Source of the DNA: an uncultured Candidatus Saccharibacteria bacterium
GTDB lineage: Bacteria > Patescibacteriota > Saccharimonadia > Saccharimonadales > 2-12-FULL-41-12
Reading direction: 5' to 3'
Assembly: GCA_964573095.1 (NCBI GenBank)
Contig: CAZNIK010000001.1
Span: forward strand, 1 to 54,506
Length of the DNA stretch: 54,506 nt
In this document: positions 11,475-43,723 of the stretch, one piece after another
How positions within the stretch are numbered: the stretch's first letter is position 1
How the letters are laid out: each line of letters opens with the position of its first letter
Position numbers and translations under genes: made by a program
The notes under the pieces: model-generated
Database searches by the model: none
Seen by the model: only the letters and a program-made list of their open reading frames with translations
Told to the model about the DNA's origin: nothing

Positions 11475-11491
11475 TCTCAGTTAATCCTCAG
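11475..11491 (+). promoter_or_regulatory. TCTCAG-N5-CCTCAG direct repeat, candidate response-regulator box (LCP/lepB intergenic)
   Basis: TCTCAG TTAAT CCTCAG, followed 11 nt later by TAGACT (11503-11508). Confidence 0.65.
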
Positions 11492-11618
11492 CTACTATGG
11501 AATAGACTTTTAAAAGAGTTAATTTCCATACTGCCCTTCAAAAATTATATTCAGTTTGTCTGGTTTACTCGGGGGGGTAAAAGTAGGTATAATTGATTCC
11601 TACGTGCTTACGTAATAT

Positions 11619-13268
11619 ATGAACGATTTTCTTCAAAAAAAGCCAAATAAGCGTCGTCCACAAACATCCATCGACGGGATAAGTAGGCCATCAAAAGCAT
11701 CTCGACCAACCGGTGGAGTGGGCTTTGATAAGCCTGCTTCGTATCGTCCCGGATCCCCAAAACTCGACGATTTTTCGAGGCGAGAAGGTTTTCGACCAAC
11801 CTCTCAAGCGCCATTGGCAACCACCAAGTCATACGACGAACCATTGATTATCGAGAAGCAACCGCAAAAGAAATCATTTTTTGGGCGCAAAAAAGCCAGT
11901 CCTTCGGGCTTTCAAAAACGAAAAAAACCAATATCGAACAAGAAAAAAGCCCTCAGAGCGTTTTCGGTGCTGGTTGTACTCGTGATGATGGTTACTGGCT
12001 TTTTGTTTGCCAAGGGCTATATAAATCTCAGAAAGGTGTTGTCCGGTGGCGGCGGGGCTGCAGCACTGCAGGAGAACGTGGACCCCTCAAAGCTTAGAGG
12101 AGAGGGCGATGGACGGGTGAACATTTTACTGCTTGGCCGGGGCGGAGAAGGGCACGAAGGTGCAGATTTAACTGACACAGTAATTTTGGCAAGTATCGAC
12201 CCGGTTGCGAAAGAGGCCGCGCTGGTAAGTGTTCCGCGCGATACCTATGTTTCGGTTCCTGGATACGGTTCCATGAAGATCAACCAAGTATTCTACACAG
12301 GAAAAACCAATGCGCTCAATAAATACTCAAAGAAAACCAACGAAGTAAAAAATCAAGCCGAAGATGCTGGTTTTGCGTTGATGGAAAGTACCGTTCAGAA
12401 AACACTAGGTATACCCGTTCATTATCACGCGATGGTTGATTTTTCTGGATTTAAAGATGCGGTTAATAATGTGAATGGTATCTCCTTGAATGCGCCAAAA
12501 GCCGTCACAGAACAGATGAGAATTGACGGTAAACCATACTATCTTAATGTAAAGCCTGGGCAACAAAACTTTGACGGTTTTCGGGCACTGGCCTACGCGC
12601 GTTCTCGTTACACGAGCGAACGGGGCGATTTTGACCGATCCGAACGCCAACGCCTCATTATTGCGGCACTCAAGGATAAAACCCTGTCGCTTGGCACCTT
12701 TTCCAATCCGCAAAAGATTTCTAACTTGCTCTCGACGTTTGGAAATCATGTACAGACCAACTTTTCTGCCAAGGACTTGTCGCGTCTCTATGACATCACA
12801 AAGGACATTCCCGGCAACAAAATAACCTCGATTGGTCTGGCGGATCCGCCAAATAATTTTCTTACCACCAGCAACGTCGATGGTCTTTCGGTGGTAGTAC
12901 CTACCGCGGGGCGGGGGAATTATAAGGAGATACAGTCATATCTTAGGAATGTGCTAAAAGATAGCTATTTGAAGAGCGAAAACGCCAGCGTAATGCTGCT
13001 TAATGGCACGACAACTGCCGGTTTAGCTACCCAAAAAGCCGATGAACTAAAAAGTTACGGCTACAATGTCACAAAGGTCGACAACGCTCCGACGAAAAAC
13101 TACAGTCGGACGATTGTAGTAGATCTAAGGGGTGGCTCTAAGAAATACACCAAAAATTATCTTGAAAAGCGTTATGGGGTCTCAGCGGTAACCAATCTGC
13201 CCGACGCCAATATTCAGCCTGGAACAGCAGACTTTGTTATAATCATCGGCAGTGATCAATCGAGATAA
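11619..13268 (+). CDS. LCP (LytR-CpsA-Psr) family protein with C-terminal LytR_C domain
   Basis: TM helix, NILLLG, TDTVILAS, VSVPRDTYV, ALAYARSR, DFDRSERQR; C-terminal VMLLNGTTTAGLA...DFVIIIG. Confidence 0.93.
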   Translation: MNDFLQKKPNKRRPQTSIDGISRPSKASRPTGGVGFDKPASYRPGSPKLDDFSRREGFRPTSQAPLATTKSYDEPLIIEKQPQKKSFFGRKKASPSGFQKRKKPISNKKKALRAFSVLVVLVMMVTGFLFAKGYINLRKVLSGGGGAAALQENVDPSKLRGEGDGRVNILLLGRGGEGHEGADLTDTVILASIDPVAKEAALVSVPRDTYVSVPGYGSMKINQVFYTGKTNALNKYSKKTNEVKNQAEDAGFALMESTVQKTLGIPVHYHAMVDFSGFKDAVNNVNGISLNAPKAVTEQMRIDGKPYYLNVKPGQQNFDGFRALAYARSRYTSERGDFDRSERQRLIIAALKDKTLSLGTFSNPQKISNLLSTFGNHVQTNFSAKDLSRLYDITKDIPGNKITSIGLADPPNNFLTTSNVDGLSVVVPTAGRGNYKEIQSYLRNVLKDSYLKSENASVMLLNGTTTAGLATQKADELKSYGYNVTKVDNAPTKNYSRTIVVDLRGGSKKYTKNYLEKRYGVSAVTNLPDANIQPGTADFVIIIGSDQSR

Positions 13269-13289
13269 TTTGAGAGTAACACGCCTAAA

Positions 13290-14045
13290 ATGGTAAGAAT
13301 GCTTGTAAGCAAAGTGCGCCCCGGAAAAGGGTTTTCGCACCTTTTTCATTTTGTGCTGGTCGGTTTGCTGCCCCTGTTGGTATATTTATTTGTTCGACTT
13401 GAGTTTTACAATGTTGCCCTGGCAATCATTTTGCTCAGCAAGTGGAGAATGTTTGCGGTTCGTCCACGACACTGGCTGGCGCACGTTCGGACAAATGCCG
13501 TTGATATTATTGCCAGCTTGTCGTTTTTGACCTTTATGATTAACAGCGAATCGATGTCTATGCAGCTGGTGTGGCTCATAGCTTATGAGGTGTGGGTCCT
13601 ATATCTCAAGCCCGGGTCAACGACGTTACTGATTGGTTTGCAAGCACTGATTGGTCAATTTATTGGGTTGGTTGCATTGTTTATTGCCTTCGAAGATGTG
13701 TCGTTGGCGGTATATGTTATCGGGGTTTCGGTAGTAACCTACTTTTGCTCACGGCACTTTTTTGCAGGATTTGAGGAGGAGAACGCCAGTATTTACTCCT
13801 GGATTTGGGCGTTTTTTGGGGGCTCAATTGCTTGGTTGCTTGGGCATTGGCTGTTGTTCTATGGTCCTATAGCTCAACCTGCGCTGTTGCTCTCGGTAAT
13901 TGGATACGGCTTGATCACGCTGTACTATCTCGATGAAACTGATCGGCTTTCCGCGCTTGTGCGTCGCCAAGTCTTGTTTGTAATTGTTGCCGTGGTGATA
14001 GTGATGATTGTCTTCTCTAACTGGGGCGACAGTGTTATTAAGTAG
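13290..14045 (+). CDS. Hypothetical polytopic membrane protein
   Basis: 251-aa ORF, almost entirely hydrophobic segments; no family recognised. Confidence 0.75.
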   Translation: MVRMLVSKVRPGKGFSHLFHFVLVGLLPLLVYLFVRLEFYNVALAIILLSKWRMFAVRPRHWLAHVRTNAVDIIASLSFLTFMINSESMSMQLVWLIAYEVWVLYLKPGSTTLLIGLQALIGQFIGLVALFIAFEDVSLAVYVIGVSVVTYFCSRHFFAGFEEENASIYSWIWAFFGGSIAWLLGHWLLFYGPIAQPALLLSVIGYGLITLYYLDETDRLSALVRRQVLFVIVAVVIVMIVFSNWGDSVIK

Positions 14046-14057
14046 CAAAATGTTGCT

Positions 14058-14074
14058 TCTCAGCTAATCCTCAG
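14058..14074 (+). promoter_or_regulatory. TCTCAG-N5-CCTCAG direct repeat upstream of htrA
   Basis: TCTCAG CTAAT CCTCAG, 12 nt, TATAAT (14087-14092), 9 nt, ATG. Confidence 0.7.
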
Positions 14075-14101
14075 CCAACCTAGAGTTATAATATAAGCAT
14101 A

Positions 14102-15325
14102 ATGGAACAAACCCCAAGCGAACCAGAAAAAAAGACTGACAAAAAAAAGGCCGCCGCTGCGCCCAAGCAAAAAACCGAGGTTTCGGTTGGCAAACAACGT
14201 GTGCTTACGGTGTTGTTGCTGTTGATAAGCAGTGTGAGCGCTGGATTTCTTGGAGGGTATTTTGGTGGTCGCCAAGACGATACTGCGCAGCGTAACTCGG
14301 TGTCGCAGGCCCAGAAGGTGGTCACGAGTGAAGGTGAACTTATTTCTAAAATTGCCAAAGAGGTCGGCCCAAGTGTCGTTTCGGTAAATGTATCCTCAAA
14401 GACGACCAGAAACAGCGTATTTGGTCCAAGAACACAAAGTCAAGAGAGCGCCGGTACTGGATTCATTATTAGTAAAGAGGGTGTGATTGTAACGAATCGA
14501 CACGTTGTTCCAGCAGGTGCAACTGATGTGAGCGTGACATTGTCAGACGGCACGCAACTTGATGGCGTTGAGGTTATTGGGCGCACGAACGACGGAGATT
14601 CGCTTGATATTGCATTCTTAAAGGTCAAAGACACCAAAGGCAAAGAGCTGAAACCGGCGAAACTCGGTGATTCTGCAAAAGTGCAGGTTGGCGACAAAGT
14701 GGTCGCGATTGGAAACGCGCTTGGACAGTTCCAAAACACGGTTACTTCTGGGATAATTTCGGGTTACGGCCGTAGTGTGGAGGCTGGAGATGATACTGGC
14801 TCGGAGTCATTGCAAAATTTATTTCAGACCGATGCGGCAATTAATCAAGGCAACTCGGGCGGGCCACTTGTAAACACATCTGGCGAGGTAATAGGCATTA
14901 ATACTGCTATTGCGGGCGGAACGGCTCAAAACATTGGTTTTGCGATCCCAATCAACGACGTGGGCGGACTGGTTAAGAGCGTATTGAAAAACGGTAAGCT
15001 TCAGCGTCCCTATCTTGGCGTACGTTACGTAACCCTCAATGACGAGTATGCCTATCAATATAATCTTGACGTTAAGCGTGGTGCGTATATTGCACCGACT
15101 GGGGGTGGGCAAGCGTCAATTATTGATGGTAGTCCAGCGCAAAAAGCAGGGCTAAAAGAAAAGGACATCATCACCAAGGTGAACGACCAAGACATTAATG
15201 AACAGAACAGCCTTGTTTCGGTGCTGGGTCGATATAGTGTGGGTGATAAAGTAAAGCTCACTGTGGTGCGTGATGGCAAAACGATCACGCTTGACGCGAC
15301 GCTCGAGGCAGCGCCGACCAGTTAG
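14102..15325 (+). CDS. htrA: HtrA/DegP-like trypsin serine protease with one PDZ domain
   Basis: TNRHVV (His), DIAFLKV (Asp), AINQGNSGGPL (Ser), PDZ with SPAQKAGL; N-terminal TM. Confidence 0.95.
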   Translation: MEQTPSEPEKKTDKKKAAAAPKQKTEVSVGKQRVLTVLLLLISSVSAGFLGGYFGGRQDDTAQRNSVSQAQKVVTSEGELISKIAKEVGPSVVSVNVSSKTTRNSVFGPRTQSQESAGTGFIISKEGVIVTNRHVVPAGATDVSVTLSDGTQLDGVEVIGRTNDGDSLDIAFLKVKDTKGKELKPAKLGDSAKVQVGDKVVAIGNALGQFQNTVTSGIISGYGRSVEAGDDTGSESLQNLFQTDAAINQGNSGGPLVNTSGEVIGINTAIAGGTAQNIGFAIPINDVGGLVKSVLKNGKLQRPYLGVRYVTLNDEYAYQYNLDVKRGAYIAPTGGGQASIIDGSPAQKAGLKEKDIITKVNDQDINEQNSLVSVLGRYSVGDKVKLTVVRDGKTITLDATLEAAPTS

Positions 15326-15351
15326 TGCACGGGTTTTAACAGAGACGTTTT

Positions 15352-16167
15352 TTAGGTGTGTGGTGAGGTTACGAAAAGCTGAGTAAGTTGCTCAGTTTTT
15401 TGTAATTGGTACCCGGCGCTTTGGGCAAGCTCTGCTTGTGTTTTGTGTTGCGATTCAAGAGCTTCACTCAGAACATATGGTGATCGACTTTTGAGGCGAT
15501 CGACGTGCTGCCAAAACCGACGATAATAATCTAGTCCGTCCTTGCCCGAAAAAAGTGCCAGCTGCGGTTCGTGAGTTATTTCTGGGCTAGTTATAAGGCC
15601 GCTGGGGACGTATGGCAAGTTGGCAATAACTGCGGTTTTGGTAGTAACCCCGTCAACCACCGAGTCAAGCAGGTCGGATTCAATGAATGAAATATCGATG
15701 TGGTGAAGCGCAGCGTTACCTTTTGCGACATCGAGAGCCCCGGCGCTAATGTCGGTTGCAACAACTGTACAGTCGGGGAATTCGAGCTTTGCGGTGATTG
15801 CCAGACAGCCCGAACCGGTGCCGACATCAATGATTTTTTCGAAAGACAGATCTTTTAGGAGTGTAATGAATGCCTCGGACTCTGGTCTTGGTATCATCAC
15901 GTTTGGGTTGACTGCGAAAAAGCGGCCGTAAAACCAGGCTTTACCACGAATGTAGGCCAAAGGCTCTCTGTTCAGCCGGCGCTGCACTGGTCGTTCGAGC
16001 GCAGCCAGATCGTCATCACTCAAAACACGTTCTGGATGTGAGACAACCCACGCTCGATCTTTGTGCAGACAGTCCTCAAGTAGTACTAGCGAATCTCTTC
16101 GAGGAGCATCAACGCCTTGCGCACCAAGCTCGGACATAGTACTAATGAGCCAATCGGCAATTGTCAT
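15352..16167 (-). CDS. prmC: Release factor glutamine methyltransferase (HemK/PrmC)
   Basis: EPLAYIRG, MIPRPESE, DVGTGSGCLA, ANLPYV, GKDGLDYYR. Confidence 0.93.
   Translation of the reverse strand: MTIADWLISTMSELGAQGVDAPRRDSLVLLEDCLHKDRAWVVSHPERVLSDDDLAALERPVQRRLNREPLAYIRGKAWFYGRFFAVNPNVMIPRPESEAFITLLKDLSFEKIIDVGTGSGCLAITAKLEFPDCTVVATDISAGALDVAKGNAALHHIDISFIESDLLDSVVDGVTTKTAVIANLPYVPSGLITSPEITHEPQLALFSGKDGLDYYRRFWQHVDRLKSRSPYVLSEALESQHKTQAELAQSAGYQLQKTEQLTQLFVTSPHT
15374..15401 (+). terminator. Candidate intrinsic terminator for htrA, embedded in the 3' end of the convergent prmC
   Basis: AAAAGCTGAG-TAAGTTG-CTCAGTTTTTT stem-loop with T-run. Confidence 0.4.
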
Positions 16168-16233
16168 CAGTTATGTAGTATAGACGGTCGAACTAACCGT
16201 AAGCAATTGTATATTTTTTCTCGTTTTTAGATA

Positions 16234-16893
16234 ATGTCTCATACAATGTCAGAAGGGAATTTTGAGCAATATCATGGTAGTCAAGAAATTGGCCATGAGC
16301 AGTGCTGGTTTTTTATTGAGAAAATTGAGTCCTTTCGTCCTGCGCTTCTTCCCGTCACTGAGGAACGAGGCTTGTGGCCTCACGGTCACCTAACGGGTAG
16401 TGACTATTGGCGCCATCGCGATCTAAGTGGGCAATTTAGTTTAGCTGATAACAAAGAACTGAGCATCATTATTGCCGAGGAAGAAGTTCGGCTCGATAAT
16501 GTACTTCAAAAATTTCGCGTGCACGCTGCTACGATGAGCGAGTATTTTAACAGTCCTAATGGAAAAAATAAAATTGTTACTTCCTACAGTGTTACCCAAG
16601 AAATGACCCCTGAAGTTGAGGTTACTACCAACTATTCATCAAAGCTATACTGCTGGGACGAAAACGAAGGTGTGTGGAAAAAAGTAAGAACCAGACTAGA
16701 GGAAATGTGGCATACACTTGCAAAAGCCGATCGCGAGCGGGGTGAATCAGAGCTTAGTGGCGACAGCTTTGTGGCGTGGTTCACTGCATATTGTGAAGAA
16801 GAAGGGGAAATGGCAGATATTGGGTTGCCGAACGTATTTACACAAGATCGGTTTAATGAAATTATGGATGTGCTTGAGGGACTTGGGCGTTAA
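16234..16893 (+). CDS. Hypothetical acidic orphan protein inserted between prfA and prmC on the opposite strand
   Basis: 219-aa ORF filling the gap exactly; no motif recognised. Confidence 0.7.
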   Translation: MSHTMSEGNFEQYHGSQEIGHEQCWFFIEKIESFRPALLPVTEERGLWPHGHLTGSDYWRHRDLSGQFSLADNKELSIIIAEEEVRLDNVLQKFRVHAATMSEYFNSPNGKNKIVTSYSVTQEMTPEVEVTTNYSSKLYCWDENEGVWKKVRTRLEEMWHTLAKADRERGESELSGDSFVAWFTAYCEEEGEMADIGLPNVFTQDRFNEIMDVLEGLGR

Positions 16894-16899
16894 CGAACC

Positions 16900-17964: not shown

Positions 17965-18020
17965 AATGATACCAAAGAACCGAGACGACCCCCGATTTTA
18001 GGGTGAGCTAATAGTAGTTA

Positions 18021-18344
18021 TTAGCCGAGTTTTTGAGGGGTGGCTTGGGCTTTTTTGCTCTTGGCAGTCTTTTTGTTGGTTGCAGCTCGGGCTTTGGCGG
18101 CGGCTTCTGTTCTAGCTTTAAACTTATCAACGCGTCCTTCGATGTCGAGTAGTTTTTCTTGACCGGTAAAGAAGGGATGCGACGTACTAGAAATGTGTAC
18201 ATTTACGAGCGGATACTCATTGCCATCGCTGTGCTTAATTTTCTCGGTTGTTTTTGCAGTCGAACGAGTCAAAAATGTAGTTCCGTTTGACAGGTCCTTA
18301 AAAACCACCAGTCGATAGTTATCTGGGTGAGTATCTTTTTTCAT
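18021..18344 (-). CDS. rpmE2: 50S ribosomal protein L31, type B (Zn-free), with Lys/Ala-rich C-tail
   Basis: MKKDTHPDNY...SHPFFTGQ...GRVDKF; no Cys. Confidence 0.93.
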   Translation of the reverse strand: MKKDTHPDNYRLVVFKDLSNGTTFLTRSTAKTTEKIKHSDGNEYPLVNVHISSTSHPFFTGQEKLLDIEGRVDKFKARTEAAAKARAATNKKTAKSKKAQATPQKLG

Positions 18345-21599: not shown

Positions 21600-21616
21600 T
21601 CTCAGATGTACCTCAG
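21600..21616 (+). promoter_or_regulatory. TCTCAG-N5-CCTCAG direct repeat upstream of rseP
   Basis: TCTCAG ATGTA CCTCAG, 10 nt, TAGAAT (21627-32), 10 nt, ATG. Confidence 0.7.
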
Positions 21617-21642
21617 TTTTTCATGTTAGAATAGATCAAAGC

Positions 21643-22764
21643 ATGTCACTTGCGCTTTTGATTCTTGGTGTTGTTCTTTTTGTGGGCCTTGTTGTTGTAC
21701 ACGAATGGGGTCATTTTATCGCGGCACGTCGTGGCGGTGTCGAGGTAGAGGAGTTTGGTATTGGTTTTCCTCCTTCGGTGTTGAGGCGAAAAATTAAGAC
21801 CAAAAAAAGTCGGTTTGAGCTGAGCGTGAACGCGTTGCCGCTTGGTGGCTTTGTTCGATTAAAGGGCGAAAACGACGATGATAGTCGCCCAGGTAGCTAC
21901 GGTGCCGCGCCACTTGTAACAAAGGTGAAGATCATGACTGCCGGGGTGGCGATGAACCTGTTGGTGGCACTCATAATGTTTACGGCACTTGCCTGGATTG
22001 GGATGCCGAAGCTTGTCGACAATCAATTTAGTGTTGCCGGTGACACCAAGGTTATTCAAGAGAAGCAAAACAAGGGTGCGGTGCTTGTGGGGAAGGTTCC
22101 AGACAATACGCCCGCGAAAAAGGCTGATGTGAGGGTAGACGATCGGATAATTTCTCTGGCCGGTGTGACCATAACTGATACAGCTCAAGTCGGCGCCACT
22201 GCAAAAGAAAACGCCGGCAAAACGGTAAATATGGTGGTTAAAAGAGGTAACGAAACCCTCACAAAAACTCTCACTCTTAATGCTCGGAATGATGGCCAAG
22301 GTTATTTGGGGGTGGTCAGTTCGTCTGGGGAATCTGGACTTGAACTTCGACGTTCAACCTGGTCAGCACCCGTTGTCGCGGTGGGAGTGAGTGCCCAGTT
22401 TACCAAGCTCACATTTCAAGGACTTGGCACAGCGATTCACAGCCTGGTAAAGGGGGATACTGCCAAAGCGAGCGAGCAAGTTTCTGGGCCGGTAGGCATT
22501 GCGGTGATCTTGAACGAAGGCAGTAAACTGGGGTTAAGTTTTATATTAATGATAATTGCAATTATCTCGCTCACGCTTGCCATAATGAATATTCTGCCAA
22601 TTCCTGCACTTGATGGGGGTAGATTATTCGTGACGCTCGGTTTTCGGGCAGCAAAAAAACCACTCACCAGACGAAAAGAAGAATTGATTCATGGAACAGG
22701 CTTTGTGTCGTTAATTGGTCTTATGATTTTGATTACGGTGGTAGACGTAAAGCGATTTTTCTAA
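21643..22764 (+). CDS. rseP: RIP/site-2 metalloprotease RseP (M50) with PDZ
   Basis: HEWGH, AGVAMN, NILPIPALDGG. Confidence 0.95.
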   Translation: MSLALLILGVVLFVGLVVVHEWGHFIAARRGGVEVEEFGIGFPPSVLRRKIKTKKSRFELSVNALPLGGFVRLKGENDDDSRPGSYGAAPLVTKVKIMTAGVAMNLLVALIMFTALAWIGMPKLVDNQFSVAGDTKVIQEKQNKGAVLVGKVPDNTPAKKADVRVDDRIISLAGVTITDTAQVGATAKENAGKTVNMVVKRGNETLTKTLTLNARNDGQGYLGVVSSSGESGLELRRSTWSAPVVAVGVSAQFTKLTFQGLGTAIHSLVKGDTAKASEQVSGPVGIAVILNEGSKLGLSFILMIIAIISLTLAIMNILPIPALDGGRLFVTLGFRAAKKPLTRRKEELIHGTGFVSLIGLMILITVVDVKRFF

Positions 22765-23553
22765 ATGGATTCGACTGAACCACCAAAGAAAAAGCCAAAA
22801 ACTCGAAAATTTTTTGCGAAAAAAACTGGTTTTGGTCCTGTCTCGGCAATTTTGGTTGCCCTTGGCGCGTACCTGGGTTCGCAACTACTGGCCGGAATAT
22901 TTATTGGTCTGTACGCGGCGCAGCGAAACCTAAACGAAGCGCAGATTTCAGACTTGGTCGAAAACTCGGTTGGCTGGCAGTTCGCCTTTATCTTAATTGT
23001 AGAGGTTCTCACGCTTGGGATTTTGTGGTGGTTCATGCGCGGTCGTCGCATACGGTTGTCGGACATTGGCCTGGGCAGAAAGCCAGATCTGAGTGATGCG
23101 GGCAAAGGAATAGTAACTTTTGGTATTTATTTTGTGCTGTTAATCATGATAATGGGCTTGTTGCAGCTGTTTGTCCCCAGCATTAACCTCGAGCAAGAAC
23201 AGCAAATTGGTTTCGAAGCTGCAAAGGGCGCTGGAAGTTTGCTTTTGGTTTTCATTAGCCTGGTTATATTACCCCCAATCGTAGAAGAAATAGTTGTTCG
23301 TGGTTTTCTGTTTTCTGGGCTTCGAAAGGGAATGGGGGTGGTGGCAGCAGCGTTGATTGCAAGTCTGCTGTTTGCGGTAGCGCACCTACAGCTTGGAAGC
23401 GGAGCGCCTCCTCTATGGGTCGCAGCGGTCGACACGTTTGTGCTGTCAATTATCCTCATCATGTTGCGGCTTCGAACGGGGGCTTTGTGGGCGGGAATGC
23501 TGGTCCATGGGCTCAAGAACGGATTGGCATTTATGGTACTCTTTGTTTTGTAA
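22765..23553 (+). CDS. CPBP/Abi (CAAX protease-like) intramembrane metalloprotease
   Basis: PPIVEEIVVRG, FAVAH, MLVHGLKN. Confidence 0.9.
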   Translation: MDSTEPPKKKPKTRKFFAKKTGFGPVSAILVALGAYLGSQLLAGIFIGLYAAQRNLNEAQISDLVENSVGWQFAFILIVEVLTLGILWWFMRGRRIRLSDIGLGRKPDLSDAGKGIVTFGIYFVLLIMIMGLLQLFVPSINLEQEQQIGFEAAKGAGSLLLVFISLVILPPIVEEIVVRGFLFSGLRKGMGVVAAALIASLLFAVAHLQLGSGAPPLWVAAVDTFVLSIILIMLRLRTGALWAGMLVHGLKNGLAFMVLFVL

Positions 23554-25381: not shown

Positions 25382-25453
25382 TTCAAAACTAGAAGCTGAT
25401 TCTTGCAGAATAATATTCTAATTTAGAACTTTCATCGTCTATAATCAAACACT

Positions 25454-26974
25454 ATGGCTACACTTCGTGATTATCGTGATGAGCGGATCCGTAAACTTAA
25501 CGAGCTTACACGTCTTGGAATAAATCCGTATCCATCAAAGAGCAAGCGGGAGATTGAGATCGCAGAAATCACACGCTCCTTTCAACAGCTCGAAGGAAAA
25601 ACAAAAACCGTCGCGGGACGTATCCGTGGAATACGAAAATTTGGGCAAATAGCTTTTTTGGTGATTCGTGATCAAAGCGGTGAAGTCCAGATTTTTCTAA
25701 AAAAAGACAGCCTTGAGGCCGAAGCCAGCACGGCGGCAAAAAAAGATGGGGGTCTGGGATTTGATCAACTGCCGCTGTTGGATACCGGTGATTTTGTGGA
25801 AGTGTGCGGAAAAATAATCAAAACCCAGACCGGGGAAATATCGGTACAAGCTGACGCGATGCGTCTTTTGGCGAAGGCGCTTCGGCCAATGCCGACGGCC
25901 AATGAAAGTTTTTCAAATAAAGAAGAGCGTCTTCGAAGGCGATATATCGACACGAACGTGAACCAAGATGTTCGCGATCGATACATACGACGATCAAAAT
26001 TCTGGCAAGCGACGAGAGATTTTTTGAATCAAAACGGCTTTATTGAGATGAATACGCCAGTACTCGAGCATACTACCGGTGGTGCCGATGCGAACCCATT
26101 TACCACCCATATGGATGCCCTCGACGAAGACTTTTACCTTAGGATTTCACATGAGCTTCCGCTGAAGCGCTTAATTGGCGGTGGCTACGAAAAAGTCTAT
26201 GACATTGGACCGAGATTTCGTAATGAAAACTACAGCGAAGAACATCTTCCAGAACATGTAGCCATGGAGTGGTATTGGGCGTATGCAGACTGGAATGACG
26301 GAATGGCATTTCAAGAAGAACTCTTTAAATACGTGTTTGAAAAGGTGTATGCGACTCACAGTTTTCGCATCAAAGGGTTCGACGTTGATTTGTCGAAGAA
26401 GTGGGATAGAGTTGACTATGCTGATTTGGTAAAGAAACACTATAAAATTGATGTTTTTGACACAAGTATTGAGAAAGTCAGAGCCCAGCTTAAGGCCCAC
26501 AAGCTGGTGGTCGAAGATACCGACAATCTTGCGCGGTCCATTGATAAGTTATGGAAAAATTTGAGACAGGATATTGCCGGTCCGGTATGGTTGATAAACA
26601 CGCCACTTTTCATTAGTCCGCTTGCAAAAATAAATCAAGCCAATCCTAAAACCGTCCAGCGCTTTCAGCCAATTATTGCCGGTACGGAGCTAGGAAACGG
26701 ATACTCCGAGCTGAATGATCCGATTGACCAACTCAACAGGTTCCTTGAGCAGCAGGCGCTGCGTGATGCCGGGGACAGCGAAGCTCAGATGCTTGATATA
26801 GATTTTGTTGAGATGCTTGAATACGGCATGCCACCCACCTGCGGCTGGGGCCATAGTGAGCGAGCCTTCTGGATATTTGAGGGCGTAAGTGCCCGTGAAG
26901 GGGTTCCATTTCCTCACCTGCGAGCCGAAATTGATCAGACCACTAGATCAATCTATCCGTCGATCGACTTCTGA
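25454..26974 (+). CDS. lysS: Lysyl-tRNA synthetase (class II)
   Basis: OB-fold, GGADANPFTTH, YLRISHELPLKRL, FRNE, ELGNGYSELNDP, YGMPP. Confidence 0.97.
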   Translation: MATLRDYRDERIRKLNELTRLGINPYPSKSKREIEIAEITRSFQQLEGKTKTVAGRIRGIRKFGQIAFLVIRDQSGEVQIFLKKDSLEAEASTAAKKDGGLGFDQLPLLDTGDFVEVCGKIIKTQTGEISVQADAMRLLAKALRPMPTANESFSNKEERLRRRYIDTNVNQDVRDRYIRRSKFWQATRDFLNQNGFIEMNTPVLEHTTGGADANPFTTHMDALDEDFYLRISHELPLKRLIGGGYEKVYDIGPRFRNENYSEEHLPEHVAMEWYWAYADWNDGMAFQEELFKYVFEKVYATHSFRIKGFDVDLSKKWDRVDYADLVKKHYKIDVFDTSIEKVRAQLKAHKLVVEDTDNLARSIDKLWKNLRQDIAGPVWLINTPLFISPLAKINQANPKTVQRFQPIIAGTELGNGYSELNDPIDQLNRFLEQQALRDAGDSEAQMLDIDFVEMLEYGMPPTCGWGHSERAFWIFEGVSAREGVPFPHLRAEIDQTTRSIYPSIDF

Positions 26975-30094: not shown

Positions 30095-30191
30095 CTGAAC
30101 ACACCAAGACGTTATGTGGCTGCGTGTAGTGAGTGTGCTATAGTGGTGGTAATTGATTAGATAGTTCATGCTAGGGAGGCAAGAAAACGCT

Positions 30192-31070
30192 ATGGCAAAA
30201 GCTAAAAAGACTGCAGGGAAAAAGGGGACAAAAAAAAGCGAATCGAAGAAGGCAGAAGCTACCTTGTCAGTTGATGCAGTTAAGCAAGCAACAAAAAGAA
30301 AAGAGCTTACACCACTCGAGAGAATAAAGGCGCTAAACAGTTTTTCGGCTATCGTGTATCTAGCGCTGGCAGTAGCGGTCGTGGCAGTGATGGCCTCTGT
30401 GTCGGCGAAAATTGGTTTGAGTATCAAAGCGCCAGATATGTTGGCAAATTCGGGCGTTGATCCTCTGGTACCAGCTTCTGAGACACTCTTTGATGTGCAA
30501 TTGCGTTATTTTCTAGCCGCGATTCTAGTGGTGGCCGCAGTGGGTTCAGCACTGCTATCTACAAAACTACGCAAAGCTTATGAGGATGGCGTCAATAAGT
30601 CTGCCAGCGCTGTAAGATGGGTGATTTTAGGTCTTACCGCGGGCCTCACGCTTGAGTTTGTGAGTCTCATTGCTGGCATTAACGATGTGATGACCCTAAA
30701 ACTCGTAGGAGGCCTCATAGTAATAACCGCACTATTGGGTTGGATATCCGACAAAGATAACGGCGTAAAAGGTGGGAAATGGTTGGCGTTTGTGTGCGCA
30801 TTAATTGCGGGTACGCTGGCCTGGCTTCCGTTGCTTGGATCTCTTTTTGGCACCAGCGTGTACGGCGATGCAAGATTTGGTTGGCATGTCTATGCGCTCG
30901 CGGGGGTAGTATTCCTTAGTTCGATGTTGATTGCGTATACCCAGTACAAGGCCATACGTCGGACGGCAACTGCTACCACATACGTTGCGAGAGAAGAAAA
31001 GTACCTCAAGATTGACCTTGTGACAAAAATTGCCGTGGTTTTGATTGTTTTGACAGCACTTGCAGCCTAG
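30192..31070 (+). CDS. Heliorhodopsin-like 7-TM protein with atypical retinal pocket
   Basis: SD GGGAGG before ATG 30192. HeR-like segments: LNSFSAIVYL, Y..G.....VRW, AGINDV, GWISDK, IAG..AW, Y...E..Y...DLVTK. Confidence 0.8.
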   Translation: MAKAKKTAGKKGTKKSESKKAEATLSVDAVKQATKRKELTPLERIKALNSFSAIVYLALAVAVVAVMASVSAKIGLSIKAPDMLANSGVDPLVPASETLFDVQLRYFLAAILVVAAVGSALLSTKLRKAYEDGVNKSASAVRWVILGLTAGLTLEFVSLIAGINDVMTLKLVGGLIVITALLGWISDKDNGVKGGKWLAFVCALIAGTLAWLPLLGSLFGTSVYGDARFGWHVYALAGVVFLSSMLIAYTQYKAIRRTATATTYVAREEKYLKIDLVTKIAVVLIVLTALAA

Positions 31071-31307
31071 AGTACGTGCGACGAGTTTCTCGGATTGCTA
31101 ACACTTGTTAATAGGTTGGTGAAAGCGAGGCCAACGACGCGTATCTTAGCTGTAACCCATCAACTCAAGCTAGGGATGCCAGGTGACCCCATTCATCGTC
31201 CAAGAAGGTCTAGAGGATATAACTTGTTCCCCAAAACTCCACACCCCAAATCTCTCGCCATCCTCACCAGAATACAGCCAATATCCACACCGGAACACCG
31301 TAAAACA

Positions 31308-31343
31308 TGTGACTAAAATACGCGATCGCGCAAAAAAGTCACA
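31308..31343. repeat. Nested inverted repeat TGTGACT-N6-CGCGATCGCG-N6-AGTCACA
   Basis: 7-bp outer arms and a 10-bp perfect palindrome share one dyad axis (31325/31326). Confidence 0.75.
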
Positions 31344-31385
31344 CTTTTGTTTGTGGGTTATGCTTTCGAGTTATACTTGGAAGGT

Positions 31386-37245: not shown

Positions 37246-37275
37246 TCATCAACTAGTATTTTTGGGAGCCTCATA

Positions 37276-38562: not shown

Positions 38563-38594
38563 GTGCGGCACTTGGTATACTTAAAGGATAGCTT

Positions 38595-39686
38595 ATGGAG
38601 AATCTTGAAAAAGAGCTCGGTGTGTTTAGGAAGGAAGTGCATAACGCGCTTCAATCTTTTGGGTATGAAAAGAAGTTAGAAGCCCGCAAATCGCTGGTGG
38701 AAGCCTCTGAACGGGCGGGCTTTTGGGACGATAGTTCTGAAGCTCAGAAACACATGCAACAACTTGCCACACTTAACTCAAGCCTGGAGCCATGGTCGGC
38801 ACTGGATCGACAAACCGAAGAGCTTAACGAGCTCGTAAAACTTGGTGATGATTCTCTGCGACAGGAGTTAGGGGAAAATCTAAAGCGAGCACAAAATTTG
38901 TTCAATAAACTCAAAGCCGACCTTCGTTTTAATGGGACATATGACGACCACGGTGCAATCTTGAGTATTTATAGTGGCGCAGGAGGGACCGACGCCCAAG
39001 ACTGGACTCAGATGTTGGCACGGATGTATTTCAGATGGGCCGAACAACAAAAGTTAAAGATTGGCGTGCTCGAAGAATCTCCCGGCGAAGAGGCCGGGCT
39101 TAAGAGTATTGGTTATGAAATTGATGGCCCAAATGTCTATGGCAAACTGAGGGGTGAGCATGGTGTTCATAGGTTGGTCCGGCTTAGTCCGTTTAATGCG
39201 AACAACCTCCGTCAAACAAGTTTTGCAAAAGTAGAGGTGCTTCCAAAAATTATTGCCAAAACTGAGGTGCCTTTGGACGAAGCTGACTTGAAAATAGATG
39301 TCTATCGAGCCGGTGGGCACGGCGGTCAAAGTGTCAATACTACCGACTCAGCGGTTCGAATCACTCATCTTCCGACTGGAATTGTAGTGAGTATTCAAAA
39401 CGAGCGTTCACAGCTTCAGAATAAAGAAACCGCCATGACAATACTGCGCTCAAAGCTGGCACAGTTGCAGGTTGAACAACATAAAGAAAGGCTGAGTGAG
39501 CTAAAAGGCCCCAATCAATCGGCCGAGTGGGGTAATCAGATAAGATCGTATGTACTTCACCCCTATAAACAAGTCAAAGACCTCCGCACGCGCTACGAAA
39601 CCTCGGACCCAGACGCCGTACTAGACGGCGACCTAGACGGCCTCATCAACGCCTACCTAGAGCACACTCTCGGCAAGCCTGCTTAA
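38595..39686 (+). CDS. prfB: Peptide chain release factor 2, continuous frame (no programmed frameshift)
   Basis: SPF tripeptide (RLSPFNA), [22 protein letters not shown]. Confidence 0.97.
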   Translation: MENLEKELGVFRKEVHNALQSFGYEKKLEARKSLVEASERAGFWDDSSEAQKHMQQLATLNSSLEPWSALDRQTEELNELVKLGDDSLRQELGENLKRAQNLFNKLKADLRFNGTYDDHGAILSIYSGAGGTDAQDWTQMLARMYFRWAEQQKLKIGVLEESPGEEAGLKSIGYEIDGPNVYGKLRGEHGVHRLVRLSPFNANNLRQTSFAKVEVLPKIIAKTEVPLDEADLKIDVYRAGGHGGQSVNTTDSAVRITHLPTGIVVSIQNERSQLQNKETAMTILRSKLAQLQVEQHKERLSELKGPNQSAEWGNQIRSYVLHPYKQVKDLRTRYETSDPDAVLDGDLDGLINAYLEHTLGKPA

Positions 39687-39762
39687 TTATCCTTGACGTT
39701 CATGCTGTAATTATGGCAAAATATTCTCCAAAGTTTAGTGTATTAAGTTAGGAGCTTTTGGC

Positions 39763-40701
39763 ATGGAGATTAAGGGCAACGGATTAACAGTACAGGTTGA
39801 CGCTGCTGAACAGACAGATCAGTGGCTTATTGAGGCTGCAACAGAAATTCGTGAAGCCGCAGAAGCTCGAGGCTTAGAAGTGCCAGCCTTTACTGGTTTG
39901 GTGGCTGTTGAAGGTGCCAACAATGATATTGATGTGGATACAGCCACCGAGACCGCACGAGACGTTAAAGTTGATCCAGCTGATGTGAAAGAGTCTCTTC
40001 TTGGACAACTTGATACTGCATTCAGTGGCTACAAGACAGTTGTCGAACATATCAATGGAGGTCGATCGCGGGAAGAACAGGTAGAGGTTGCCGATCAAGA
40101 AACCGTAGAAACCGAACTCAAGACTTGGTTAACTGATGAAAAAGCTGAATATATGGCTCGGACCCAAGAAGCTGACCCAGAATTACGCTGGACACTAATT
40201 GCTTCGCCGAACAATGTTGAAGTTACTCCTGAAGAAGCCGAAGAGTTGGCTGTAGAATTCGGTAAAAACCAGCCATATTTAACCTATCCGTTGAGCCCTA
40301 TCTTAAAACGCTACACCCCTGCGGAACTATCTGGCACTGATCCAAGTAACGGCAATAAGATACGTTTTGCCGCTGTACCAAGCAAACTGACCCCAGAACT
40401 CTATGGTACGGTGGCTGCTCAGCGCGATGCCTTGGCTGAGCTGCAAGCCGACATGCCCGATGTTAGGCTTTCTAGTCATCTAGACGATCTCGTGTACTGG
40501 TACACGCTTCGGGCCCAAGGTGATGACCTCGCTCACGGTGATGTCTATGAGCGAACCAATAACAGTCACTTTGACTTGCCCGAACAGCGCCTCGATGGTG
40601 ATGACTTCGTGCTCGATTCGTGTGTCAACGTCATTGGCGAGCCGAGCATAAACGCTCAGAGTGTTCGCTTTGCCTACTACGGTCGCGCCCTGGTGGGGTA
40701 A
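39763..40701 (+). CDS. Hypothetical acidic protein inserted between prfB and ftsE; C-terminus resembles a DGR variable-protein end
   Basis: 312-aa ORF after GGAG SD; C-terminus HFDLPEQRLDGDDFVLDSCVNVIGEPSINAQSVRFAYYGRALVG. Confidence 0.75.
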   Translation: MEIKGNGLTVQVDAAEQTDQWLIEAATEIREAAEARGLEVPAFTGLVAVEGANNDIDVDTATETARDVKVDPADVKESLLGQLDTAFSGYKTVVEHINGGRSREEQVEVADQETVETELKTWLTDEKAEYMARTQEADPELRWTLIASPNNVEVTPEEAEELAVEFGKNQPYLTYPLSPILKRYTPAELSGTDPSNGNKIRFAAVPSKLTPELYGTVAAQRDALAELQADMPDVRLSSHLDDLVYWYTLRAQGDDLAHGDVYERTNNSHFDLPEQRLDGDDFVLDSCVNVIGEPSINAQSVRFAYYGRALVG

Positions 40702-40743
40702 AGTGTAAGACACGCCAAACGGTTTGATGCTATAATAGTGCTA

Positions 40744-41424
40744 ATGATTCTGCTAGACAGGGTAACAAAAACGTATACCAAAGAAGGAAACGCACTCGAA
40801 CGGATCAATCTTCATGTTGAGCCACGAGAGTTTGTGATTGTCGTTGGCCCAAGCGGCGCCGGTAAGTCAACGCTGCTGAAACTTCTCACCAGGGAAGAAA
40901 AACCCAGCAGTGGCAAAATAATTGTCGGCGGAATAGATTATGAGCAGCTGAAAGATCGCAATATCCCGCAACTCAGAAGAAGAATAGGGGTGGTGTTCCA
41001 AGATTTTAAGCTGCTGCCCAACAAAACGGTTTTCGAAAACGTGGCCTTTGCGCTGGAGATTGTTGGCATGAGCAACCGCGAGATTAAACACACGGTGCCG
41101 AAAGTGCTACAAATTGTTGGATTGAAAGATAAAGCCAAAAGTTATCCTCGGGAATTGTCTGGCGGTGAGCGACAGCGAGTGGCGATTGCAAGAGCCATCG
41201 TTCGGCAACCAAAAATTTTGATTGCTGATGAGCCAACGGGCAACCTTGACCCAAAACACGCCTGGGATGTCATTCGGGTGTTAGAGAAAATAAATCGCTA
41301 TGGCACCACCGTATTGTTGACGACGCACAATCAAGAAATTGTCAATAAACTCAAGCGGCGGGTGGTCACCATTAAGGACGGCAAAATAATTAGCGACAAG
41401 GCTGGCGGGAGCTACGAGCTGTAA
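40744..41424 (+). CDS. ftsE: Cell division ATP-binding protein FtsE
   Basis: GPSGAGKST, RIGVVFQDFKLL, LSGGERQRVAIARA, DEPTGNLDP. Confidence 0.96.
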   Translation: MILLDRVTKTYTKEGNALERINLHVEPREFVIVVGPSGAGKSTLLKLLTREEKPSSGKIIVGGIDYEQLKDRNIPQLRRRIGVVFQDFKLLPNKTVFENVAFALEIVGMSNREIKHTVPKVLQIVGLKDKAKSYPRELSGGERQRVAIARAIVRQPKILIADEPTGNLDPKHAWDVIRVLEKINRYGTTVLLTTHNQEIVNKLKRRVVTIKDGKIISDKAGGSYEL

Positions 41425-41431
41425 AGTGCTT

Positions 41432-42403
41432 ATGGATAAGAGACGATTTATAGCATTTAGTCGAGTTGTGCGAGCCGGGTTCGTAAACTTTGTTCGCAAT
41501 GCCTCGCTCAGTATTGCCGCAACAGCGGTTATGACCGTGACGCTGACTATTGTCCTTTTTTCGGTAATTGCAAATGCCACCCTCAACCACACCATTGATC
41601 AGATAAACGATAAGATAGATATCTCGGTCTATCTAAAAGACACCGTGACCGAGGATCAGCGCGATAATTTGATGGCCCAACTACGGAGTTTGGGAAATGT
41701 GAGAGATGTCAAATACGTGTCAAAGGACGAAGCGCTGGCCCAATATCGCAAAGACAATCAAGACAACGTCGATTTGCTGCTGGCGATTTCACAAACCGAC
41801 AACCCACTGCCGGCAACAATTCAAGTAAAGCCAAATGACCCGGTCCAGATAGAAGAAATAAAGAAGGTGCTCGAGCGAAGTGACGTAAAGGCGCTTCAGT
41901 CTGACGAAACATCGTATTCTGGCGATCGAAAAGTAGCTATTGATAAGATAACCCGTGCGACCAAGTTCTTTAGGGAAGCGGTGGGCGTGAGCATTATTGT
42001 GTTTGCCATAATTTCTATGTTGATCATCTTTAACACGATTCAGATGGCAATTTTCAATCGTCGGGACGAGCTGACGATTATGCGACTTTTGGGAGCGGGG
42101 CCATGGTACATCAAAGGACCGTTTATTGTAGAAACCATGCTGTATGGCGTGGTGGCGGCGGTAATTTCGCTCAGTCTATGCAATGCGATTTTCATCATTC
42201 AAGCCCAAGCGTTTGATGCCAGCAGCCTGGGGTTATTAGATCTTAAGTATGCCAACAACTATTTTGCGGACAACTTTTGGCTGATTATGTTTATGCAACT
42301 CACAGCCGGGATGGCGATTGGCGCTATTTCTGCGCTGATCGCGACCAAGCGTTATCTTCGGACAAAGCCGACTCGGCGGGCGCGTCGCAATCTAAAAAAG
42401 TAA
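41432..42403 (+). CDS. ftsX: Cell division permease FtsX
   Basis: YVSKDEAL, NPLPATI, IFNTIQMAIFNRRDELTIMRLLGA, IKGPFIVE. Confidence 0.94.
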   Translation: MDKRRFIAFSRVVRAGFVNFVRNASLSIAATAVMTVTLTIVLFSVIANATLNHTIDQINDKIDISVYLKDTVTEDQRDNLMAQLRSLGNVRDVKYVSKDEALAQYRKDNQDNVDLLLAISQTDNPLPATIQVKPNDPVQIEEIKKVLERSDVKALQSDETSYSGDRKVAIDKITRATKFFREAVGVSIIVFAIISMLIIFNTIQMAIFNRRDELTIMRLLGAGPWYIKGPFIVETMLYGVVAAVISLSLCNAIFIIQAQAFDASSLGLLDLKYANNYFADNFWLIMFMQLTAGMAIGAISALIATKRYLRTKPTRRARRNLKK

Positions 42404-42412
42404 CGACGCTTA

Positions 42413-42480
42413 TGCTACAATGTGGGTTCGGGTGGAAACGAGTCACTCGTCCGTTAAACGAGATAGCAGCCACCCAAATT
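42413..42480 (+). ncRNA. Candidate small structured RNA or leader between ftsX and the CHAP hydrolase
   Basis: Extended -10 TGCTACAAT (42413-21), GGGTGG/CCACCC outer stem, two AAACGAG copies flanking CTCGT. Confidence 0.3.
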
Positions 42481-42509
42481 TCAACAGAGGAAACGTAATG
42501 AAGACGGGG

Positions 42510-42538
42510 TTGCATATTATACGTATGTATGCTATTAT
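42510..42538 (+). promoter_or_regulatory. Sigma70-type promoter for the CHAP hydrolase
   Basis: TTGCAT-17-TATTAT with TG extension. Confidence 0.6.
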
Positions 42539-42554
42539 AAATATGCGAAATAAC

Positions 42555-43691
42555 ATGAAAAAACAAACAATTCTATCAGTAATAAAGCGAATGCAACCTG
42601 CACACAAGTTGTTGGTAGTAGGTATTGTCGGGGTTTTTGTTCTGGCTGGATTCGTGGCACCATTTGCACGAGCCGATCAGTATGAAGCTCAAATTCAAGC
42701 GTTGAATGCCGAGAATGGCAACAAGCGCAATTCACAAAATCAGCTGGGGGCCGAAGCTGCCTCATTGAGCGATACTATTGCCAAGCTACAAGCCGAAATC
42801 AACGCAATTCAGCAAAAGATAACCGATAATCAAAATCGGGTTAATGATCTCAACAAACAAATTGCTGCTGCCGAGATTGAGCTAGAAAAGCAAAAGGATC
42901 TTTTGGGCGAAACTATTAAAGCTATGTATCTCGAGGGGGATATCTCGACAGTTGAGATGCTGGCTTCTAGTAAGAACCTCAGCGATTTTTTTGATAAGCA
43001 GCAATATAGAGAAAGTGTGCGCTCCAAGATAAAGACGACACTTGATAAGATTACGCAATTAAAGCTTGATCTGAGCACCCAAAAAGACACAGTTGAGAAA
43101 TTAATCGCTGAACAGCAGACGCTGCAAGGTCAAGTGGTTGCCCAGCGGGCCGAAAATGATCGCTTGCTTGGACTCAATCAAGGGCAGCGAAATGAACTTG
43201 ATTCACAGATTAAAGCCAATAATTCCAAAATCTCGCAACTTCGAGCTCAACAAGCAGCCGAAAATGCCAAGCTATTCCGAGGCGTTCGCGTTATTGCCGG
43301 CTCTAACGGCAGGGATTCTTACCCAGAGATTTGGCGTAATGCCGCGCAAGACAGCCTTATTGATAGCTGGGGTATGTATAACCGAGAATGCGTGAGCTAC
43401 ACGGCCTGGAAGGTTCATGAGAGTGGTCGCTTTATGCCGTATTGGGGTGGTCGCGGTAATGCCAACCAATGGGATGATAATGCTCGAGCAGCAGGCATTC
43501 CAGTTGATGGCAGCCCTCGCCCCGGTGATGTCGCGGTAAGCAACTCGGGATACTACGGACACGTTATGTATGTTGAGTCTGTGAACCCAAATGGAACAAT
43601 TAACATCAGTCAGTACAACTGGAGTCTCAACGGCACCTATTCTGAGGCCTACAATCTGCCAACGGCTGGCTTAGTGTTCATCCACTTCTAA
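42555..43691 (+). CDS. PcsB/CwlO-like coiled-coil plus CHAP peptidoglycan hydrolase (likely FtsEX partner)
   Basis: Signal/TM segment, long coiled coil, NRECVSY (Cys), WGGRGNANQW, YGHVMYVE (His); start 42543 or 42555. Confidence 0.9.
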   Translation: MKKQTILSVIKRMQPAHKLLVVGIVGVFVLAGFVAPFARADQYEAQIQALNAENGNKRNSQNQLGAEAASLSDTIAKLQAEINAIQQKITDNQNRVNDLNKQIAAAEIELEKQKDLLGETIKAMYLEGDISTVEMLASSKNLSDFFDKQQYRESVRSKIKTTLDKITQLKLDLSTQKDTVEKLIAEQQTLQGQVVAQRAENDRLLGLNQGQRNELDSQIKANNSKISQLRAQQAAENAKLFRGVRVIAGSNGRDSYPEIWRNAAQDSLIDSWGMYNRECVSYTAWKVHESGRFMPYWGGRGNANQWDDNARAAGIPVDGSPRPGDVAVSNSGYYGHVMYVESVNPNGTINISQYNWSLNGTYSEAYNLPTAGLVFIHF

Positions 43692-43706
43692 AGATTTATA
43701 CAAAAG

Positions 43707-43723
43707 TCTCAGATATTTCTCAG
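43707..43723 (+). promoter_or_regulatory. TCTCAG-N5-TCTCAG direct repeat upstream of ctpA
   Basis: TCTCAG ATATT TCTCAG, 11 nt, TATCCT (43735-40). Confidence 0.7.

Follow-up and report, generated by a model that had tools for sequence, protein, structure and literature searches.

We analysed a 54.5-kb stretch of DNA from an uncultured Candidatus Saccharibacteria bacterium (54,506 nucleotides, hereafter the window), in which a short direct repeat, TCTCAG-N5-YCTCAG, stands in front of four genes for proteins of the cell envelope. A preliminary description of this DNA had taken the repeat, which we call the box, for the mark of an envelope-stress regulon. It had also placed the organism in the candidate phyla radiation, and rightly so, given that the homologues of the window's proteins are labelled Candidatus Saccharibacteria or Saccharimonadales. 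The boxes and the genes around them are listed here; the remainder of the window consists of housekeeping genes.

Box 1: 11475-11491, + strand, TCTCAG ttaat CCTCAG, in the divergent lepB/LCP intergenic region
Box 2: 14058-14074, + strand, TCTCAG ctaat CCTCAG, before htrA
Box 3: 21600-21616, + strand, TCTCAG atgta CCTCAG, before rseP
Box 4: 43707-43723, + strand, TCTCAG atatt TCTCAG, before ctpA
LCP: 11619-13268, + strand, LCP-family glycopolymer-to-peptidoglycan ligase (Pfam LytR_cpsA_psr 5e-34, LytR_C 1e-10; NCBIfam LCP family)
hyp251: 13290-14045, + strand, polytopic membrane protein of 251 amino acids, between LCP and htrA
htrA: 14102-15325, + strand, S1C serine protease with a PDZ domain and an N-terminal membrane anchor (Pfam Trypsin_2 2.5e-30, PDZ_2 1e-15; NCBIfam Do-family peptidase 3e-86)
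rseP: 21643-22764, + strand, M50 site-2 protease with a PDZ domain (Pfam; NCBIfam RIP metalloprotease RseP 6e-63)
CAAX protease gene: 22765-23553, + strand, CAAX/Rce1-like intramembrane protease (Pfam), abutting rseP without a gap
ctpA: 43784-45037, + strand, S41 C-terminal processing protease with a PDZ domain (Pfam Peptidase_S41 1e-50; NCBIfam prc subfamily 1e-100)
lepB: 10760-11446, - strand, S26 signal peptidase I, divergent from LCP (Pfam Peptidase_S26 1e-38)

Four boxes and the promoters behind them

The pattern TCTCAGNNNNNYCTCAG has exactly four matches in the window, all on the + strand and at the intergenic positions first reported for it, and each is oriented toward the gene downstream. 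Dinucleotide shuffles predict 0.01 occurrences of TCTCAG-N5-YCTCAG, the same figure as the rough earlier estimate of chance hits per window, and none of 100 shuffles reached four. The single hexamer TCTCAG is found 17 times where 19.5 are expected, so that the signal resides in the paired arrangement and not in composition; a restriction-site-like bias of CTCAG was discarded for the same reason. Equal frequency in coding or random intergenic DNA, which the preliminary description had held to speak against its own proposal, is not what we see: the repeat is absent from the coding DNA of the window and from its remaining intergenic regions. At box 1 a weak third half-site, TTGCAG, lies in phase one turn further upstream (11464-11469). 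The window matched no Rfam family, and no tRNA, that would indicate an RNA element.

Behind each box we find a hexamer of the TAnnnT type, 11, 12, 10 and 11 nucleotides (nt) downstream for boxes 1 to 4, and no recognisable -35; the boxes do occupy the -35 position, as had been claimed. Box 1 leads after 11 nt to TAGACT (11503-11508), the putative -10 of a box-dependent LCP promoter (P1), and a second, box-independent LCP promoter (P2) follows, with the arrangement TTTACT-18-TATAAT (11564-11593). Box 2 is separated by 12 nt from TATAAT (14087-14092), itself 9 nt from the ATG of htrA, a layout that reads as being of the leaderless type. At box 3, 10 nt lead to the extended -10 TGtTAGAAT (hexamer 21627-21632), from which 10 nt remain to the rseP ATG. 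Box 4 precedes TATCCT (43735-43740) by 11 nt, and a second conserved -10-like hexamer, TACAAT, stands at 43758-43763, 34 nt past the box. A scan for sigma-70 promoters, which detects LCP P2 and the rpsB promoter, gave no -35/-10 pair at the box promoters.

Pfam and NCBIfam agree on the four downstream products named by the preliminary description (LCP, HtrA, RseP and an S41 protease). From the sequence, the true start of ctpA is likely the TTG at 43796, which follows a GGAGG; a database protein 99% identical to CtpA has 413 amino acids. The rseP gene and the CAAX protease gene, a syntenic pair in about 50 loci, probably form one operon. No Pfam or NCBIfam family accounts for the conserved protein encoded by hyp251. 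In 79 of 84 loci this gene immediately precedes htrA, with which it probably shares its transcription unit(s), and its product may be a partner of HtrA in function. Box 1 is situated 29-45 nt upstream of the lepB start codon on the opposite strand, so close that binding there could, speculatively, affect lepB too; boxes pointing toward lepB were found in two loci of relatives, L053 and L072.

In many promoters of this DNA, among them those of htrA, rseP, lysS, an mprF-like gene and a receiver gene, no more than 8-10 nt separate a TATAAT-like hexamer from the start codon, which predicts leaderless or nearly leaderless mRNAs. By our reading of the sequence, these short-leader promoters lie at the following window positions:

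14087-14104
21627-21645
25436-25456
49189-49209
47241-47279

In the neighbourhood of ctpA, the order ftsE-ftsX-(peptidoglycan hydrolase)-ctpA is conserved (40738-45037 in the window; L172 and L175 among relatives). In the window and in L173 the hydrolase has a CHAP domain, and in L172 and L175 it is an M23 peptidase, a swap of type at the same FtsEX-associated position.

The box in other Saccharibacteria

A scan with an HtrA alignment, keeping one genome per species, gave 80 loci of other Saccharibacteria species, with HtrA proteins 55-74% identical to that of the window. The gene order lepB(-)/LCP/membrane protein/htrA ... rseP-CAAX is common to them, and contigs of the window's own species keep sites 1-3 exactly. 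In none of the 80 loci does the exact TCTCAG-N5-YCTCAG occur, which looked at first like a lack of conservation, but inspection of the orthologous htrA promoters revealed a degenerate version of it, such as TTCTCAG tatt TTCTAAG, GTTTAAG cgta TTCTCAG or TTTTAAG cctt TTCTAAG. Its consensus is TYTMAG-N5-TYTMAG, in which T.AG/T.AG is invariant and many half-sites read TTTAAG, and it precedes the htrA operon in at least 30 of the 80 species, 9-12 nt from a TATAAT-like -10. The motif as first described is thus real in the window's clade, while class-wide the form to look for is the degenerate one.

Several counts place this degenerate box at htrA specifically. With the consensus of the window itself and up to two mismatches, a test that involves no circularity, 16 of the 124 matches in the 2.7 Mb of the 80 species fell in htrA upstream regions, which make up 0.6% of the search space. 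We also built a matrix from 19 htrA promoters of other species only, each with a -10 (consensus nTTTCAGnnnTTTCTCAG); it replaced an iterated matrix on all three promoter sets that had drifted to T-rich sequence. Applied back to the window, the matrix ranks ctpA (18.8), LCP (17.5, or 17.0 in the upstream register) and htrA (17.2) at the top, the next match scoring 13, and it yields four matches at a score of 16 or more versus 0.2 in shuffles. When all upstream regions of the 80 loci were scanned in gene orientation at a score of at least 14, matches were found before htrA (23 of 52 regions), hyp251 (4/30), LCP (3/55), lepB (2/63) and parA (1/51), and in none of about 640 other upstream regions (about 95 kb).

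In an alignment of htrA promoters from eight species, the only invariant columns are T.AG, T.AG and TATA.T. All 42 sites that we compiled have the 11-bp period, and the distance to the -10, in the 34 with a recognisable one, is 8 nt once, 9 nt six times, 10 nt 11 times, 11 nt 12 times and 12 nt four times, that is, 9-12 nt in 33 of 34. The box is therefore real and no product of chance; it keeps a fixed phase close to the promoter, and orthologous promoters of different species have retained it.

These data bear on two of the other explanations that we considered. The first is that the repeat arose by chance, by compositional bias or as a by-product of coding, or that it is a small mobile repeat without regulatory role. 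In four species the best match does fall in the 3' end of hyp251, where TTC TCA encodes the Phe-Ser of a conserved FSxWGD tail, so that a part of the hexamer can arise from coding constraint. Against this stand the excess of four observed over 0.01 expected while the single hexamer is not enriched, the strict orientation and -10 distance, the persistence of the box across species while its flanks diverge, and the absence of matches from the roughly 640 unrelated upstream regions; moreover, beyond the 17 bp the sites resemble one another over too short a stretch for a mobile element. We regard this explanation as effectively refuted. The second, which we consider very improbable, would make the repeat the -35 determinant of an alternative sigma factor of the extracytoplasmic function (ECF) type. 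The target genes are typical of envelope-stress sigma regulons, and RseP, the normal releaser of such factors, is among them. Still, the -10 elements are of the housekeeping TAnnnT/TATAAT type and not of the CGT type, two equivalent T.AG blocks 11 bp apart with a variable spacer, and a third in-phase copy at LCP, are the signature of an oligomeric DNA-binding protein and not of sigma region 4, and the window contains no sigma or anti-sigma gene.

Some htrA loci depart from the common arrangement. Where a species has no LCP gene here, hyp251 is the gene preceded by the box, and htrA comes after it with a Shine-Dalgarno site, from which it seems that the box travels with the operon promoter. Four species have the motif directly before GGGGG...ATG, seemingly with no room for a -10; a TAGCAT or TAGGCT hexamer at 10 nt, together with a second in-frame ATG that has its own GAGGG site, resolves the spacing. 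In the four species mentioned above, whose best match lies within the last codons of the hyp251 gene (L068 9854, L084 8995, L013 375, L028 9223), about 20 nt, not 10, separate it from a TAGAAT-like hexamer; such a match may be a by-product of coding, or else a site that functions from one helical turn further up. On one contig of a metagenome-assembled genome (CAMTWJ010000002.1, loci L006 and L007) there are two htrA paralogues, separated by 180 kb. The syntenic one (L006) has a box-like site; the other, which adjoins a CAAX protease gene, has none.

The other three boxes have a narrower distribution. For LCP, L176, which with L171 represents the closest relatives (both from one sample), has the box TTCTCAG ctaa TTTTAAG as well as an htrA box, a diverged strain (L001) keeps the LCP box and its -10 TAGACT unchanged amid mutated flanks and spacer, and further away LCP boxes are sporadic (L045, L059, L028 and L019), L045 having TAGACT at the 11-nt spacing too. 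For rseP, L179 (TCCCAG ccaag ACTCAG) and L180 (TCTCAG ataag TCTAAG), whose RseP proteins are 84% and 80% identical to that of the window, share the geometry of box, 10 nt, TAAAAT or TAAACT, 9 nt and ATG, whereas none of 31 more distant rseP upstream regions has a box at a score of at least 14. In L179 an extra open reading frame (ORF) of 194 amino acids is present between prsA and rseP (1516-2100), and the box stays directly upstream of rseP. For ctpA, L171 has TCCTCAG attt TTCTCAG amid diverged flanks (CtpA 76% identical); the ctpA upstream regions of L172, L173/L174 and L175 (64-68% identity) have no box. A metagenome scan with a CtpA alignment was uninformative, the matches listed being mostly non-Saccharimonadia loci at 35-53% identity, in which no box was seen.

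Sites at LCP, rseP and ctpA hence recur in the nearest relatives (76-84% protein identity) and mostly not further away, while the htrA box is widespread, which suggests that htrA is the ancestral target and that the four-promoter regulon belongs to the window's clade. Read in this way, the promoter sequences indicate that the regulon has expanded in the window's lineage, where LCP, rseP-CAAX and ctpA were added to the core htrA. Absence from orthologous promoters would have counted against the preliminary description; the box is instead present in htrA promoters and, in near relatives, in those of LCP, rseP and ctpA. Its four-gene envelope regulon is lineage-specific, boxes at LCP, rseP and ctpA being confined to the window's clade and a few other species; more widely, only the htrA part is conserved.

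A candidate operator and the search for its reader

Taken together, the sequence evidence makes it very probable that the box is a functional operator. A pair of equivalent conserved blocks set one turn apart, with a spacer that varies and a constant distance to a -10 without a detectable -35, is the signature of a class II activator binding as a head-to-tail dimer of OmpR/PhoB-type winged-helix proteins. The features in question, hexamer-N5-hexamer direct repeats with an 11-bp period that abut the -10 where no -35 can be recognised, are all present here. By analogy with characterised systems, the binder is probably an OmpR/PhoB-type protein, and activation is a good deal likelier than repression. 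We infer the family of the binder, the activation and the signal, which would be envelope or secretion stress, from these likenesses.

The mechanism that we propose would run as follows. A head-to-tail dimer, most likely of the winged-helix output domain of an OmpR/PhoB-family response regulator, would bind the two hexamers, which are offset by one helical turn and have the core T-N-A-G within the consensus TYTMAG-N5-TYTMAG. With 9-12 bp between the end of the proximal hexamer and the housekeeping-type -10 (TAnnnT) that follows, the dimer would cover about -40 to -24 and replace the missing -35, recruiting RNA polymerase as a class II activator in the way of PhoB at pho boxes or CiaR at its repeats. 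The ancestral, class-wide target would be the htrA operon, which serves the quality control of secreted and membrane proteins. In the window's lineage, boxes would have been added at LCP (a wall-polymer ligase), at rseP-CAAX (intramembrane proteases) and at ctpA (a tail-specific protease), and the four targets together would make up a small envelope-maintenance regulon, its regulator and the sensor of that regulator being encoded elsewhere in the genome. To this explanation as a whole, an operator of an OmpR/PhoB-type class II activator with htrA as its core target and a lineage-expanded envelope regulon, we give a probability of about 0.58.

Several observations weigh against it. The window, the 4.7 kb beyond its end (RecO, a tRNA synthetase, GH1 and MraZ) and about 90 related Saccharibacteria loci contain no winged-helix response regulator. 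Many promoters of the organism seem to lack a clear -35 and to use an extended (TGn) or bare -10, so that a missing -35 is weak evidence for dependence on an activator. The rseP promoter may be partly constitutive, judging from its extended -10 (TGt), and further downstream both LCP and ctpA possess another -10 that does not depend on the box. At the threshold that we chose, the htrA operon is preceded by no strong box in about half of the 80 species. Finally, the one receiver of the window with a clear likeness to OmpR/PhoB proteins (47277-47657) has close relatives, in a search of a representative library, that lack an output domain as it does, being receiver-only or extended by long disordered tails rich in Pro, Ala and Ser.

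The search for the regulator, by tblastn with an approximate E. coli PhoB sequence as query, returned only receiver-only hits, and with the same query no regulator or kinase gene was found next to htrA (+/-10 kb) in 84 loci. The window has no DNA-binding response regulator, its receivers being two receiver-only ORFs, in keeping with the earlier proposal that the regulator is encoded outside it. Its signalling proteins are these two (47277-47657 and 53507-53881) and a degenerate kinase-like protein (52766-53494). The first of the two receivers is a stand-alone domain with its best matches among OmpR/PhoB-family receivers (92 bits to the PhoB model), and relatives keep it too, close to ctpA and downstream of pyrG. 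The second receiver is encoded by the last gene of a cluster (52040-53881) that is kept in L085 and L173 and encodes a single-pass membrane protein (231 amino acids), a soluble degenerate histidine-kinase-like protein (242 amino acids) and the receiver-only protein (124 amino acids). The kinase-like protein has, by eye, an Arg at the position of the expected phospho-accepting His, and its kinase matches are weak (E about 1e-6); the cluster could be a pseudo-kinase signalling module.

The lack of a classical regulator/kinase pair near any target also leaves room for other readers of the box. Tandem repeats of 11-bp period adjoining the -10 are also recognised by ToxR/CadC-like and SARP proteins, so that a membrane-anchored one-component sensor of the former kind or a SARP-like protein, both winged-helix activators other than response regulators, would produce the geometry that we see. 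We think it quite improbable, because Pfam reveals no such protein in the window or in the loci and the documented control of htrA through boxes of this kind is exerted by two-component regulators. In slightly broader terms, the box could have a reader that is no classical OmpR-type regulator, given that in about 90 loci none of the targets has a regulator/kinase pair beside it and that the signalling proteins nearby are only the OmpR-like receiver (47277-47657) and the degenerate kinase-like/receiver pair (52766-53881). This reader could be a split or new DNA-binding partner, or the box could be what survives, as a core, of a CiaR/MprA-htrA circuit ancestral to Gram-positive-type bacteria, which the minimal genomes of these epibionts would have kept as one of very few regulons. 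This we hold to be distinctly unlikely.

Alternatively, the same dimer could be a repressor, sitting on the tandem repeat and occluding the -35 region until stress de-represses htrA and the other genes. The site does overlap the core promoter, the frequent lack of a -35 in this organism means that box promoters could be intrinsically active, and the rseP promoter has its extended -10; CtsR, for its part, represses clp protease genes at tandem heptads arranged as direct repeats. We nonetheless find repression unlikely, if worth keeping in mind. A narrow spacing to the -10 (9-12 nt, mode 10-11) is typical of class II activators that touch RNA polymerase and is not needed for occlusion, the -10 hexamers at LCP (TAGACT) and ctpA (TATCCT) are weak, and the htrA regulators documented for repeats of this geometry are all activators (CiaR, PMC3091779; MprA, PMC12113857). 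The class II activator thus stays our preferred reading.

Some further genes of the window deserve mention in their own right. A heliorhodopsin gene (30168-31070, Pfam 6e-26) adjoins msrA and a MacB-type ABC exporter; the 276-nt gap between it and rsmE (31071-31346) contains neither a called ORF nor a tRNA, nor anything that matches Rfam. The region 171-8134 encodes two predicted surface proteins of very large size. The first, truncated by the start of the window, weakly matches a carbohydrate-binding module; the second, of 1855 amino acids with Kelch/beta-propeller repeats, varies between strains, the exact protein having no database record while its neighbouring genes are recorded.

Significance and comparison with known systems

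Transcriptional regulation in Saccharibacteria and other Patescibacteria is poorly documented, and our literature search found no described regulon of this kind in Saccharibacteria; a study of prokaryotic regulatory networks by comparative genomics does mention Patescibacteria (PMC7739468). The box is among the first conserved cis-regulatory elements defined for this group. It is not surprising in kind. Its position is precise and conserved, its core target, htrA, is clear, and in one lineage it has spread to wall-polymer attachment and three more envelope proteases, an example of regulon growth by promoter capture. It offers a route to how an ultrasmall epibiont senses damage to its envelope, for instance during attachment to the host or under attack by it. 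Host Actinobacteria are reported to inhibit their epibionts via Esx secretion, and the engineering of Saccharibacteria with reporter genes is now feasible (PMC13622651). The box could be made directly into a stress reporter, and it can guide the identification of the factor that binds it, by co-occurrence analysis or DNA-affinity methods.

Among the systems with which the box can be compared, the class II activators of the OmpR/PhoB family, such as PhoB at the pho box, use tandem repeats one turn apart, about 10 bp upstream of the -10, which substitute for the -35 and on which a head-to-tail dimer contacts RNA polymerase. In the same family, CpxR and CssR control degP/htrA, and WalR has a hexamer-N5-hexamer box. 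All of these differ from our case in their recognition sequences and signals (phosphate, periplasmic misfolding), and there the cognate proteins are known. Promoters of ECF sigma factors, with a single GAAC-like -35 block and a CGT-type -10, are unlike the box promoters, which have a TATAAT-like -10 and two equivalent blocks. In Streptomyces, the two-component systems CutR/CssR control htrA-family genes and a cell-wall amidase (PMC12802291). The htrA-family targets are a likeness, but the motif of CutR consists of one 8-mer, TAWATAAA, whose position varies, with no tandem 11-bp repeat at the -35, and CutR both activates and represses (PMC12802291).

The preliminary description had likened the box to that of MprA. 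The M. tuberculosis MprA box consists of two 8-bp direct repeats 3 nt apart, which gives an 11-bp period. The MprA/MprAB-pepD(htrA)-sigE circuit of Actinobacteria, in which control is exerted directly by an OmpR-family regulator, also resembles ours in its targets, an HtrA-family protease and cell-envelope genes, and the C. glutamicum MprA binds TKTTAAGAAM at htrA and sigE, a motif that shares the TTAAG core (PMC12113857). It differs in that the mycobacterial mprA, mprB and pepD are adjacent, whereas the Saccharibacteria htrA has no regulator or kinase neighbour in 84 loci, and in that no sigma-factor gene is seen among the targets of the Saccharibacteria box.

The closest documented box is instead that of CiaR, in the streptococcal CiaRH system. 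It was described as TTTAAG-N5-TTTAAG and refined to NTTAAG-N5-TTTAAG. Its distance to the -10 is 10 bp, T, A and G are its invariant positions, and htrA belongs to its regulon (PMC3091779). Like ours, it is a hexamer-N5-hexamer direct repeat with an 11-bp period in the place of the -35, about 10 bp upstream of a TATAAT-type -10, with the same invariant positions (third T, second A and final G: T.AG) and with htrA as a hallmark target; some Saccharibacteria half-sites are literally TTTAAG (six distal and one proximal in the 42 compiled sites). The differences are that the hexamers of the window, TCTCAG and CCTCAG, have C instead of A at position 4, that no CiaR or CiaH orthologue was found, that the organism is a Patescibacterium, not a Firmicute, and that no genes of the csRNA type (cia-dependent small RNA) are evident behind the boxes of the window, which have no Rfam match, boxes 2 and 3 leading directly into coding sequence. 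Since the CiaR, PhoB and MprA regulons are each defined by their protein, we liken the box to those of these regulons and do not file it in any of them. Still, judged on its sequence, the CiaR box is the best match in geometry and motif among documented boxes, and so close a likeness suggests that the control of htrA by a box of this type is old.

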